The notes under the pieces were generated by a model, which was not told the DNA's origin, did no database searches, and worked only from the letters and a program-made list of their open reading frames with translations. A program made the translations under genes and the position numbers. This document shows positions 24,708 to 30,700 of a stretch of 64,000 nucleotides of DNA, in pieces. Source of the stretch: Phoronis australis (lineage: Eukaryota > Animalia > Phoronida); contig NMRA01000095.1 of the NCBI GenBank assembly GCA_002633005.1, positions 840,401 to 904,400 of the forward strand, read 5' to 3'. How positions within the stretch are numbered: the stretch's first letter is position 1; every line of letters starts with the position of its first letter.

Positions 24708-27700
24708 ATGTCTCTAAATTCTGCATTATATGATGTTTTGGAGGGATCATTTCGCCAATTGTCCATCGAGGCCGAAGGTGAATCTCTTGAGTCAATTGAA
24801 AATTCAAATTTGTCTTTTTTATACATGCAGGAAATAGTTGAAATGGTTGTGAAATTAGGCACTCCCTTCCGCTTTTTCGGCCTTTTCACTCCAGTCCAGT
24901 TCATCCAGGGCAGGGGCCAGAGACAGAGTAGAGTTGAATTACCCTAGGGCGTAGGACCACGCTAGAAAAGCAAGACTCCATGTATTTTCATTGATAAGAC
25001 GTGATTTTGGCTAGTCGAGACTTCTTAACTCTACTCATGGGTGAGACCCTTGGATTGCACGACAAACGGCTTTCCACCAGTGGCCTTGTTTTGGGCCCTT
25101 GGTAGGGTGAGCAAACCCAAATACAAATTTCATCAGAAACACTTGAAAAGAGTGTTAAATGATAGCCNAATAGAAAGAAGAAAAATTAAATATTTCACTG
25201 GCATACTTTTCATTTTTCACCACTTAGTATGCTAATAGATATGAGCTTGTGAAAATCATGAAAAATGGCAAAATTTCGCTCTTGCTGAATTTCCGCCATA
25301 TTGGTTTGCTCACCCTACCCTTGGGGTGAAAAAATTTAGCTTATTGAATGGAATGAAACTCCAACGTCACGTTATAATCACTTGCATGGCCGCTGTTGTG
25401 ATAGGATAGCCGTTGAATCTGAAGTATCAGGCCAGTGATATTAATCATTTGATTACGGGCATCTCTGCATCTGGTGTTTGGTGGACTGGTTAAAACTTAG
25501 AGGGCGCTTGAAGTTGAATTTGCTTGAAGTTTCGGGTGTGGAGCTGGGGTAAAGGTGATTTTTTTCCTCTGTACTGGCTCCATTGGTACGTACCCATGAC
25601 AGCAGAGAGGGGACCATAGTCCACACCGGCTGTGTGAGAGGATGCGGATGTAGAGGGGGCAGATCTGAAATTGGGTTACAGGTAGACAATGACCAACGTC
25701 TCTGCTGGCGCCCGGCAGGTGGCATGGCGTATGTATCCGCTAGCGTGCGCAGTGAAAATGGCGAGTTACCAATTTTGGGAACTGAACAAGGGACTGCTCG
25801 AAGGAAAGGTTGATAACGGGAGTGTTTGTTCGAGATGGAAGGAATTAAATATATCAATGGCCTTCTAAGGTGTCCCTCTATGCGCAAAAGGTATTCCTAA
25901 CAACGTAACTTATAGTCAGTGCGAGGCGTAATTTGCCGAAAAGCTTCTGGTGTATGACGCGCCTATAGGAGCTCCATCGTCTACTGGTACAGCCAGTAGA
26001 GATGATGCAGCTCCTATAGCCTAGGTTACAGGCAGCATGACCCATAATCATTGTATGGGTAAGAGTGATGAATCTACAATGAGTGTATTAATTATAGTTG
26101 TCTAACTTTAGGCACCTCTTCTCCAGGTTAATGTTAGTATCATGTGCAACGGGACCAGTTAAGATGCAGGGTACAGTTGATGTGCACCCAATGTGTACCT
26201 GCTGGAAAATTTGAACAGTTTTTATACAGTTATGATGTGCCAAAAATTCAAAAACACAACATTGTTATTATTGTTGATTTTGACCTAATATTACAGGCTT
26301 TGATTAGTTAAAATGATATTCATATTTCACCTCCTGGTTCTTCTTCAGTTCACAGTGCTATATTTGGTCAACCATCAAAAGTGAAATGAGATGTTCCCAC
26401 AAACTCTTTTTACTCGATATGCTAAATATTAACGAGTTATTTTGTCATTTCAGTTAATCAAAACCTGTAACTGGTCAAGTGGTCCGAACTACTGTGGTCA
26501 ATGTTAGTTGGACAAAATGGTGGATGACAAAGAAATCCAGCGGGAGGTGTGGGATGGCAAGATTCCCGTTTGCTTCCAACTGTCTTCCGACGAGAAGTTT
26601 ACAATGGAAGAGGTGGATACATACTTTATGCTGGTTCCCAGGAACACTTATCTTCCTCTTGTTAGCGATAAAGTGCAAAAACACTTCTCAAAGTACACGG
26701 ACCCAGAGCAATCCGGTGAATTCTGGGTGGAGTATGAGAGCCAGCCTCTGAAGTGGCACTACCCATTTGGAGTTCTGTTCGATTTGCACGGTGCGGACAG
26801 CAGTTTGCCTTGGCAGTTGACGGTACACTTTCAGGACTTTCCAGAGACTGAGCTTCTTCACTGCTCAAATCGAGAGGTTGTTGAAGCACACTTTATGGCT
26901 TGTGTCAAAGAAGCGGACGCACTGAAACACCGTGGACAAGTGATAAACTCCATGCAGAAGAAAGATCACAAACAATTGTGGTCGGGACTCGTAGCTGATA
27001 AATTTGACCAGTTTTGGACTGTGAACAAACGTCTAATGGGATCAAACGGTGATGGTGGCTTTCGTGCAGTTCCTTTCAAGCTTCACTGCGTAGACCAGTC
27101 ATTTCAACAGGCATTGATAAAACCAAAAAGTGAAGATGGCACTGATTTGACTTTGAATGATTTATTGGAGCATGTGATGCCGGAGTGCTTGAACACTGAT
27201 CAATATCGTATACTAACCCACGGCATGGAGCCCCCTCTAGAGGCAACGCTGCAGTGGTTGAGTGAAAACTTGAGCTATCCAGATAACTTTTTGCACATTT
27301 GTGTTGTTAAGAAACATTTATAACACACTGTCTGTTAGGGTCATACTGTTAGTTACTATATTCAACAGAACTCAAATGGTATTTTCCTATGTTGCTACTC
27401 CAAATGAACATTTCATCTAGGGTTCAGTTTTGCTTGTGTGTTACGCCAGGATACAATTATAGAAATTATACCATAGGGTCATAGTTCCTGAAAAAAAATA
27501 TGGAGTGCTCCATTGTTATTGATATGACTGAAGGCGAGATGGAACATTATTGGGAATTTAACTACATGTGCTAATTTTCCACTTTTTAAGAGGATTTCTT
27601 CTTTTTTGGTTTCAAATTCCTCTTGATTTCCAATTTCCACTTTTTTATCATTATTTTGACTTTAGTCATGCCCAAAACATTTTCAACCAGTTAAATGTTA

Positions 27701-30700
27701 CAACACAAAAAAAATATTTCTATCACATAAGCCTATTTGTTTATAGAACGTCATCTGGAAAGTTTTCCTCGTTTTTGTCATTGGTCATTCCAAGTCCTGA
27801 AGTACGGAGTTCAATAGTTTAGGTTAAATGTCTGAATGAAGATAAGGTTGAGGCTTAGAATGTGTTCTAGAGAAAATCTCTCGCTAGCATGTTACCTCCA
27901 TTTAGAATTTGGTCAAGTGTCAAGTGTCTGAGCAATTTTGTAACTGTGGAATCTTCATTTCGGATTCTAGGTTTTGAATTGTTATTGCAGTTAACAACCG
28001 TTGTTGAGTGAATTTTCATTTTAAAAAATACTGAATGTTCTTAAGTTTGTCATATTCGGAGAAGGAGCTGTAATCGTAATGACGTTTTTCTACTTTTGAT
28101 TACTTTTTGTTAATTTATGGTCTTTTCTGTTATGCGCATAATTGTGGGATAAAAAATTAAGGTGGCGATTAAGTATGACAAGTGTGGCCGTTGACCTGAG
28201 GTTATGTAAGACCTTAGGAAAATGTCGAAATTTGACTAACTTTAGTATCAAGAGTTATCAAATTAGGGCTTTTTGAAAAAAAAAATCAACAGTTGCGTAA
28301 AACGAAAACCAGTTGATAATTTTGAAGAAAATTGTTGCAGCATTTTAAATGTTTCATCTTTAACATTTGATATCAAATGGAATTTGATTATGTTGTTGAT
28401 CTCATAGTTTTGCTGTGACATGGTCATGTGACCCAATTAATGTCAGATTTGTGTAAAGTCCGAAATCAAATTCTGCAGGCCTTCTGCTTGTATAAGGCAG
28501 ATACTTGTGCGCAATGTGCGGAATTAATATCTAAAGGTTTTTAAGTTACTAAAGGCTGCATACACAGACCTGTCTGTAAAGTCTTACGTAACTTAGTTTG
28601 AAAATTTGTGCAAAGTTCTTTCTAAGTGTTTTCTACTGTGTGTTGTAGATTTTACAATGGCTTGTTTTCTTTGCTTTAAAATGATATGCTTGATAATAAA
28701 TGATACTTGAGTTGTTACTTATGAACAAAGTTGTGATCATGTACTCTGGTGCACTATGTTGGGAGATTTTTAACACTGGGAAGAATGGGAAGGTTAGATG
28801 TCAGATTTAATGAGTGACCCTTGATTCAATAGGTATTTAGTCATCATGTTCCTTAGCCTGCAGGCGCCCCCTGGCAGTGAACTACTTTCTACTCTCAAAT
28901 TTAGACATTAAGAAGAAAGATCTTTGTTGATTAGCCTTGCAGGCTAGTGAATACAGAGTTGCTCATCGCATTTTTCAGTGCATTTTGGAACTTATGTTGC
29001 CATTTGAGAGATCCTACATAGTATTCACAGTATGTATAAAATTCTTTAGAAACATCTCAGAAAATATGAAAACAAAACAAGTTTGAGTGATTTTCAGAAA
29101 CCTTGTCACTTTCGCACATTTTATTGTCCATTTGGAAAGTGTCTATCCAAAATCTTGCCTGACAAGTGTTAAACAGGTGGCGATTAAAAATTTCTATTGC
29201 TGGGTCTAAAATGTATTCATTCATAAATGTTTGATTTTTTCATTCAGAGTTGTATCTGAGTAAACAGATCCCAGTGCTGGATTGTGCACCAACGCCATTA
29301 GAGTTCTATCGTGACTGGGTGTCTCCAAACAAACCTGTGGTTATACGAAATATCACAGATAGCTGGGCAGCATTGAACAAGTGGACGCCTGACTATCTGA
29401 GGTGAGATGACTTGGGGAAGAATAAACGGTGTCTGGTGTTTTCTAATACCCGAAGGCTTTAAGTCCACAGTGATCAAGAATGTTCTATTTTGGACTATCT
29501 GCAGTCTATTTTGAACTATCCGCAGTCTATTTTGGACTATCCGCAGTCTATTTTGGGCTATCTGCTGTCTATTTTGGACTATGTGCAGTCTGTTTTGTAC
29601 TATCTGCAGTCTGATGAAAAGCGACTTAAGGTGTTTGGGTCAGAAATTCGGTTGTGCACTCCCACTTCCCACAATTTAGTGCAGAATAAATCTTTAGCCA
29701 ATTTATTCTGAGCATATCATAAGCTATAAATTATTGATAACAATTATCTCAGTAAATTGCAGTTAAATGTACTATGTTCTCAGAGACTGCACTTTTATGA
29801 GATTTAATAATTTTCAGAGTTGTGTGGAGTGTAAGACAAAATTTCTGACTAGTGTAAGTCTTGTGTCACTTACATGAAGCAGACGCTTGTGTAGAATACA
29901 TTGGAACATTGCAGCAAAGGTCCTATGGTCAAACTACAACAATCTTGTCTTGAGAATGGTGTGTGTGTGTGTGTGCGTGTGTGTGTGCGTGTGTGTGTGT
30001 GTGTGTGCGTGTGCATGCGTGCGTGCGTGCGTGTGTGTTTATATACATATACACCTAAATGCATATAATTGTACATTAATTAAACGCTTCATTATTTTCA
30101 AGATCTGTACCGTACTGTGATGTTTAAAAAAATTACGGGAAGTAGAGAATTTTGGCAACTGAAATTTTACTGTACTTGAATGAAATTTAAAAAAATTTAA
30201 TTCTTTTGCCTTTTTTATCAATTCCAGTATTTCTCTGTCTTCTCGAATCAAAGTTGATTTCATAGTAATGTATTTGCAAAGTTCACGATTTTGACTGAGG
30301 AACTCATTTTTTCTAGTCATTGCCAACTTTTGATTCAAAAGATGCGATTTCTTTTATGTTTTATTACTCTTTGTTAGGTCAAAAATTGGCAGCCATGATG
30401 TAACAGTGGCAGTGACCCCTAGTGGTTATGCTGATGCAGTGTTTGATGACAAGTTTGTGATGCCTGAAGAAAGGTTGATGCAATTTGCGGAGTTTCTCGA
30501 TATTCTGTTCAAGAAAAGGAAAGTAAATGGTGTATTTTATGTGCAAAAACAGAACTCTAACTTGACAGATGAGTTTGCTGATCTCATAGAAGAAGCTGCA
30601 AGTGAAATCAGTTGGGCTACAGAATCATTTGGTATGTCAAAAAGTAATACCGCATTGCCGCGCCATTAGACCCGTGGGTGCGGAACTGCTCTTATATGCA

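Follow-up and report, generated by a model that had tools for sequence, protein, structure and literature searches.

The intronless ATG5 gene of Phoronis australis lies within intron 1 of JMJD7 and shares the first exon of its host

In the phoronid Phoronis australis, the core autophagy gene ATG5 is encoded by an intact, intronless open reading frame (ORF) that lies on the same strand within intron 1 of an intact JMJD7 gene, and the transcripts of both genes have their first exon in common. The locus was analysed in a window of 64,000 nucleotides (nt) of contig NMRA01000095.1 (GenBank assembly GCA_002633005.1, positions 840,401 to 904,400 of the forward strand), to which all coordinates refer. 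We consider it probable that both genes depend on a single promoter and a single first exon, that ATG5 transcripts end at an intronic polyadenylation (poly(A)) site, that ATG5 is an old retrocopy which captured an exon of its host, and that its protein is made, as predicted from the leader, by ribosomes that pass the JMJD7 start codon through leaky scanning or reinitiation. The principal features are the following.

24655 to 24777 (5' end approximate), plus strand: shared exon 1, spliced to 26454 or 29248 (junction reads and narrow alignment)
24708 to 24777, plus strand: JMJD7 start and first 23 codons (homologue alignment, N-terminal profile), opening a 28-codon upstream ORF (uORF) on the ATG5 mRNA
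26454 to 28720 (3' end approximate), plus strand: ATG5 terminal exon, with a 63-nt part of the leader, the coding sequence and a 3' untranslated region (UTR) of about 1.4 kb (junction reads, fall of depth)
26517 to 27323, plus strand: ATG5 coding sequence (single uninterrupted ORF, Pfam domains, alignment with human ATG5)
28695 to 28700, plus strand: AATAAA, which probably serves ATG5 as its poly(A) signal within the intron (sequence, depth drop just after it)
29248 to 29401, plus strand: JMJD7 exon 2 (junction reads, Cupin_8)

The ATG5 ORF codes for 268 amino acids and contains all three Pfam domains of ATG5 in order, at full length and above the cut-off (ATG5_UblA, E = 6.7e-36; HBR, 6.4e-21; UblB, 5.2e-23). 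Human ATG5 in the PDB matches it at E = 1.6e-98, and its identity to database matches is 52-59% among the 120 listed of 593. K131 of the predicted protein is aligned with K130 of human ATG5 (4gdk_B), which we take to be the ATG12-acceptor lysine. The host gene is a complete ORF of 317 amino acids in eight exons, with GT-AG boundaries at all seven introns, a Cupin_8 domain and the HxD...H metal motif; its best named matches are JMJD7 proteins, with 54-63% identity to 20 named JMJD7 sequences. The peptide of exon 1 aligns to the N-termini in all 18 JMJD7 homologues aligned, and when a profile of 99 JMJD7 N-termini was compared with 127 ATG5 proteins and this peptide, the latter was the sole sequence over the threshold (E = 0.0029). 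The exon 1 donor (AAG/GTGAAT, after 24777) is joined in phase to the exon 2 acceptor at 29248, and the acceptor TTTTGTCATTTCAG, ending just before 26454, sits 63 nt 5' of the ATG5 ATG. All elements named in a preliminary description of this DNA, made from the sequence alone (ATG at 24708, donor at 24777, acceptor at 26454, ORF at 26517-27323, AATAAA at 28695 and exon 2 at 29248), are present, and the same-strand nesting that it proposed is verified by the in-phase joining of exons 1 and 2 together with the corresponding RNA junction in all three raw-read runs described below.

The RNA data comprise three stranded raw-read RNA sequencing runs (X1, X2 and X3) and one contig set (X4), which were chosen by species label and whose exon reads match closely; the alignment covered the region 24300-32200 and used about 18-19% of each raw-read run. 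The exon reads all have one orientation, as expected for RNA from the plus strand if the libraries are of the usual stranded type. The junction from exon 1 to ATG5 (24777 to 26454) is crossed by 10, 6 and 41 reads in X1-X3 (8, 6 and 25 distinct starts) and by one X4 contig, and the junction from exon 1 to JMJD7 exon 2 (24777 to 29248) by 10, 9 and 12 reads (8, 7 and 9 distinct starts), that is, 57 ATG5 against 31 JMJD7 reads when pooled. Both junctions are found in each of the three runs, have GT..AG boundaries and lie on the sense strand, so the use of one first exon for either JMJD7 or ATG5, put forward in the preliminary description, was observed. In the narrow alignment of the three runs, all loose read ends (22, 17 and 53) fall behind 24777, and no intronic read-through extends beyond 24787, depth being zero from 24788 on. 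Among the 15 joints displayed, none leads from the ATG5 exon to JMJD7 exon 2, and no other exon is spliced into 26454.

Depth at 26495, shortly downstream of the acceptor, is 15, 7 and 41 in X1-X3, and junction reads account for 10 of 15, 6 of 7 and 41 of 41 of it; exon 1 thus supplies most ATG5 5' ends. Alternatively, ATG5 could be driven by an intronic promoter of its own, the junction with exon 1 being a by-product of forced exonisation or transcriptional interference, for which KTI12/TXNDC12 and Mcts2/H13 are described cases. Several observations weigh on this side or qualify the shared transcription unit. Five molecules end at 26482 in X1, where the ATG5 share by depth (0.75) also exceeds that by junctions (0.50), so that a minority of transcripts may start internally; reads derived from repeats mask, on both strands, 25092-25355 and 25620-26147, the latter stretch containing a AAAATGGCG motif at 25755; 11 further joints outside the displayed 15 leave room for an infrequent first exon of another kind or an infrequent joint from ATG5 to exon 2; and no poly(A)-tailed read occurs among the reads displayed. 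Against an intronic promoter stand the junction proportions and the displayed joints just described, and read depth is zero in all three runs at 26148-26411, just 5' of the ATG5 acceptor. We hold this alternative to be very improbable, and the shared exon stands, the junctions that the preliminary description had proposed as a test both being present in all three runs.

At the other end of the ATG5 exon, coverage is 4.6, 2.4 and 4.5 in 28524-28787 and 0.5, 0 and 0 in 28788-29051 (X1-X3). This loss fits the AATAAA at 28695, the only one on the plus strand between 24000 and 29400, in agreement with the earlier proposal that ATG5 ends near this signal and before JMJD7 exon 2. A high-copy repeat in the 3' UTR (27468-27995) attracts reads from both strands. 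Use of the proximal acceptor at 26454, with cleavage near 28720, would compete with splicing to 29248, so that at fixed promoter output more of one mRNA would mean less of the other; and if, as is likely, polyadenylation ends the ATG5 transcript within the intron, each transcript would give rise to either protein but not to both.

Among the junction reads, ATG5 has a share of 0.50, 0.40 and 0.77 in X1-X3 (57 of 88 pooled), and the share by depth, a measure biased against JMJD7 by short exons, is 0.75, 0.49 and 0.78. The difference in junction share between runs gives p = 0.008 when all reads are counted, but p = 0.12 when distinct starts are counted instead; the samples also differ in genotype at 24688. 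Thus, of the mutually exclusive switch suggested in the preliminary description, the alternative junctions from exon 1 are confirmed in all three runs, whereas a regulated choice between them is a hypothesis.

The ATG5 mRNA has a leader of about 181 nt with five upstream AUGs (24669, 24708, 24730, 24733 and 26501), a number that does not exceed chance expectation (mean of 3.5 after shuffling, p = 0.27). Two features of this leader should be added to those listed above.

24669 to 24695, plus strand: uORF1, 8 codons, in AAGATGG (TISU/YY1-like) context with a purine at -3 and G at +4, included in the mRNA only when capping occurs upstream of 24669
26468 to 26470, plus strand: stop codon of the uORF opened by the JMJD7 start on the ATG5 mRNA, 46 nt before the ATG5 start

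On this mRNA the JMJD7 start at 24708 opens a uORF of 28 codons. The AUGs at 24730 and 24733 are in weak context and in the ATG5 frame, which is stopped 9 nt before the ATG5 start, and the ORF of the AUG at 26501, also in weak context, overlaps that start. The ATG5 AUG, with a purine at -3 and G at +4, has the best context in the leader, and the JMJD7 AUG is without G at +4. No uORF-free ATG5 isoform was seen in the RNA data, the only 5' exon seen being the one that carries the JMJD7 start codon. From this arrangement we infer that ATG5 is made by leaky scanning plus reinitiation: 40S subunits would reach its AUG either because they fail to initiate at 24708 or because they resume scanning and initiate again after the uORF of 8 or that of 28 codons. 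A gap of 12 nt, such as that between the stop of uORF1 and the JMJD7 ATG, is generally too short for reinitiation, so that ribosomes finishing uORF1 would tend to skip the JMJD7 AUG and arrive at that of ATG5 after another 145 nt. Translation of uORF1 would then favour ATG5 at the cost of JMJD7 wherever the cap is upstream of 24669. In the ATF4 leader, a short uORF1 permits reinitiation, uORF2 is inhibitory, and induction follows phosphorylation of eIF2alpha; the succession of a short uORF1 and a second uORF is partly matched here, with a spacer of only 12 nt and a cap position that is approximate relative to 24669.

uORF1 is in the JMJD7 frame, from which it is parted by one TGA, and its first three codons specify the same residues as the first three of ATG5; this resemblance could be a relic start or arise by chance from a YY1-type motif, AAGATGG being the core of the TISU/YY1 element (PMC2518114). 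The uORF peptide encoded by 24708-24777 includes the N-terminal helix of JMJD7, which in the fly protein is part of the dimer interface (PMC9001643), and what the peptide might do on its own is a matter of speculation. The possibility of a JMJD7-ATG5 fusion protein was considered and rejected. Exon 1 enters the ATG5 exon out of frame and then meets a stop codon, so no fusion protein forms; moreover, Cupin_8 (the JmjC domain) occurs in none of seven longer ATG5 proteins, and the JMJD7 N-terminal profile is matched by none of the 127 ATG5 proteins.

With such a leader, the ATG5-bearing mRNA might be mostly unproductive, its uORFs trapping ribosomes and its splicing draining JMJD7 transcripts, while working ATG5 would come from another locus. 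The five leader AUGs, with two uORFs that stop 9 and 46 nt short of the ATG5 start and a third that overlaps this start, would fit such a role, as would the approximately threefold lower translation of RBMXL1 caused by a similar uORF (PMC12219734) and the long end branch (0.73) of this sequence in the ATG5 tree. However, the ORF is full-length, with three domains, the equivalent of K130 and an optimal start context, and the number of AUGs is within chance. Four of the five differences displayed within the ATG5 coding sequence, from a list with 267 further rows for the whole stretch, are synonymous, which suggests purifying selection. An unproductive mRNA is accordingly, in our opinion, very unlikely.

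A more elaborate scheme would be a nutrient-sensing toggle on one AUG, the JMJD7 start yielding protein from one splice form while repressing translation of the other, with the result that skipping it would at once lower the DRG1/2 hydroxylase and raise ATG5. Ribosomes could be made to skip the AUG at 24708 if they translate the 8-codon uORF, if the cap lies further upstream, or if eIF2alpha is phosphorylated in starvation, and the choice of splice and poly(A) sites would move the mRNA in the same direction. We regard this toggle as doubtful; if true, it would mean that a core autophagy gene, probably the only copy, is wired against a modifier of translation factors.

As to its origin, ATG5 is probably an old, lineage-restricted retrogene riding on a host exon, as judged by comparison with other animals. 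ATG5 and JMJD7 matches were found on contigs of differing size in 20 of 20 same-species pairs from other animals among the matches listed (120 of 593 for ATG5 and 120 of 265 for JMJD7, sizes being taken per 90% cluster and three genus-level pairs of different species left out); annelids, nemerteans, phoronids and bryozoans contributed no pair to this comparison. These pairs, none from a close relative, accordingly gave no sign that the nesting is deeply conserved. In metagenome contigs ATG5 is segmented in eight of nine loci, with breaks at matching places, near residues 38, 81, 105, 159 and 192 in the three most complete, and a tblastn match to JMJD7 occurs in none of the nine, which are short (1.2-11 kb) and distant. 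The lack of linkage in other animals and the introns in eight of nine loci thus point to a lineage-specific retrogene. The locus shows the features of a hitchhiking intronic retrogene, namely position on the same strand in a host intron, splicing from the host 5' exon (57 reads and one contig), and absence of the introns present in those eight loci. ATG5 would have arisen by retroposition into JMJD7 intron 1, and the intron-bearing parent was perhaps lost. In the ATG5 tree (quick method) and in a two-gene tree of 21 rows, the sequence stands on an unresolved branch outside deuterostomes plus Nematostella, nearest to Lingula by path.

A different course of events is that the coding introns were lost in place and ATG5 was then moved as DNA into JMJD7 intron 1 together with its own 5'-UTR acceptor. 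Two coral-like metagenome loci, L001 (1394-2215) and L008 (1371-9921), have the same head-to-head promoter layout before ATG5, which is intronless in L001, assumed to be DNA, and intron-bearing in L008, so that L001 represents an independent loss of introns. The ATG5 of L001, not nested and in what appears to be the original layout, tells against retroposition as the only route, since intron loss without a move also happens; so does the finding of neither a target-site duplication nor a poly(A) relic at the phoronid ATG5, although the scars of retroposition decay in old copies. Acceptor-like AG sites, seen by eye, precede the ATG5 start shortly in two further loci (L003 and L005), and vertebrate ATG5 has a 5'-UTR intron ending about 60 nt before the ATG. 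However, loss in place followed by a move needs two events where retroposition needs one, and intronic retrocopies that borrow host exons are already a documented class (PMC4772013). We consider this second course unlikely.

The promoter of the ATG5-JMJD7 unit appears to be shared with a third gene, MYG1, on the opposite strand.

24610 to 24668, both directions: short bidirectional promoter of MYG1 (minus) and the JMJD7-ATG5 unit (plus) (stranded read limits, sequence motifs)
24553 to 24617 (ends approximate), minus strand: MYG1 non-coding exon 1 (minus-strand reads in X2 and X3)
22595 to 22787, minus strand: MYG1 exon 2, with the ATG at 22740 (PF03690)

Plus-strand reads start in the bin 24652-24668 (depth 0.3, 1.8 and 1.2) and climb in 24669-24685 (6.7, 4.7 and 16.5), placing 5' read starts at about 24655-24685; the cap positions are approximate, since the extreme 5' ends of transcripts tend to be missed by short reads. 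In X2 and X3, reads from the minus strand extend to about 24617, the loose ends of three X2 reads match MYG1 exon 2 by splicing, and depth is zero between the two strands at 24618-24651. The MYG1 and JMJD7/ATG5 starts thus lie about 50 nt apart and point away from each other, which argues for one short promoter for three genes. Its putative sites are ACTTCCGG at 24625-24632, ETS-like, and CCAAT at 24643. The identity of MYG1 follows from the match of all three of its pieces to PF03690. Four X2 minus-strand reads lie within MYG1 intron 1 (24380-24447), either a retained intron or an alternative exon.

The remaining exons of the host gene are as follows.

30378 to 30631, plus strand: JMJD7 exon 3 (junction reads, Cupin_8)
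31082 to 31138, 31933 to 32028, 32696 to 32772, 33612 to 33771 and 36587 to 36672, plus strand: JMJD7 exons 4-8 (homology, GT-AG; among these, reads cover the exon 3-4 junction only)

JMJD7 exon 7 with its flanks is present twice, at 33475-34277 and 34948-35751 (98.6% over 804 nt, flanking a gap of N at 34926-34947); both copies code for an identical peptide, and the duplication is probably an uncollapsed haplotype in the assembly. Elsewhere in the window, two sets of open frames bear a resemblance, to judge by eye, to known proteins, those at 7358-11864 to a subunit of a nicotinic acetylcholine receptor and those at 43722-48363 to a glucoside xylosyltransferase.

The described organization is of importance both for the regulation of autophagy and for genome annotation. 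A core autophagy gene apparently lacks a private promoter and first exon; its expression takes the form of an alternative 3' part of the transcript of an unrelated enzyme gene, and the promoter used drives MYG1 as well. The output of ATG5 versus JMJD7 would then be a trade-off set by splicing and polyadenylation, and translation of ATG5 must pass the host start codon, which makes the locus well suited to testing, with reporters, how uORFs control autophagy. Counts of exon 1, knock-outs and promoter edits at this locus affect two or three genes. Two features are notable, the borrowed exon that carries the host start codon, with no uORF-free form seen, and the presence of three genes on one short promoter. 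The sharing with MYG1, the uORF role of the JMJD7 start and the precedent in other gene pairs go beyond the preliminary description.

That description knew of no earlier account of the arrangement. We found no shared ATG5/JMJD7 locus among the papers listed, most subscription journals and supplements, whose tables of retrogenes or nested genes could hold one, being outside the coverage; the architecture itself, on the contrary, is known from other gene pairs. A study of liver cancer cells that names both proteins places JMJD7 upstream of the autophagy of YTHDF1 that depends on NBR1, and is silent on gene arrangement (PMC13562797). In human, JMJD7 exons are joined to an unrelated neighbour in the JMJD7-PLA2G4B read-through, where the partner lies downstream and a fusion protein results, whereas ATG5 is nested and out of frame (PMC9001643). 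The cholinergic locus, with the whole VAChT gene in ChAT intron 1, has the same strand relation, a shared promoter and alternative splicing; it differs in its conservation from nematodes to mammals, its functionally coupled products and its several promoters, while the ATG5/JMJD7 arrangement looks lineage-specific (PMC8197147).

The closest parallels are found among retrogenes. A survey listed 13 cases in human and 14 in mouse of retrocopies sharing host exons, among 230 and 243 expressed retrocopies, respectively, and orphan retrogenes such as RNF113 are likewise intronless copies of normally intron-bearing housekeeping genes (PMC4772013). In mouse and human, Taf9 is a single-coding-exon essential gene expressed via the first exons of its host Ak6, giving two unrelated proteins from one locus, and in contrast to ATG5 it uses several start sites and two host exons (PMC4772013, PMC5408686, PMC7749173). 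In human RBMXL1/KYAT3, as here, the retrogene lies in an early host intron on the same strand and shares the first host exons by alternative splicing, the shared exon creating the translation-lowering uORF mentioned above, and junction ratios shift with the cell state (PMC12219734). RBMXL1 differs in having an isoform that skips the uORF exon and in the retention of its parent RBMX, whereas the only 5' exon seen for ATG5 carries the host start codon; the cargo here is a core autophagy gene. In the case of Taf9, too, the AK6 start codon lies in a shared exon. Thus ATG5/JMJD7 adds a further pair to an architecture already known from other genes.

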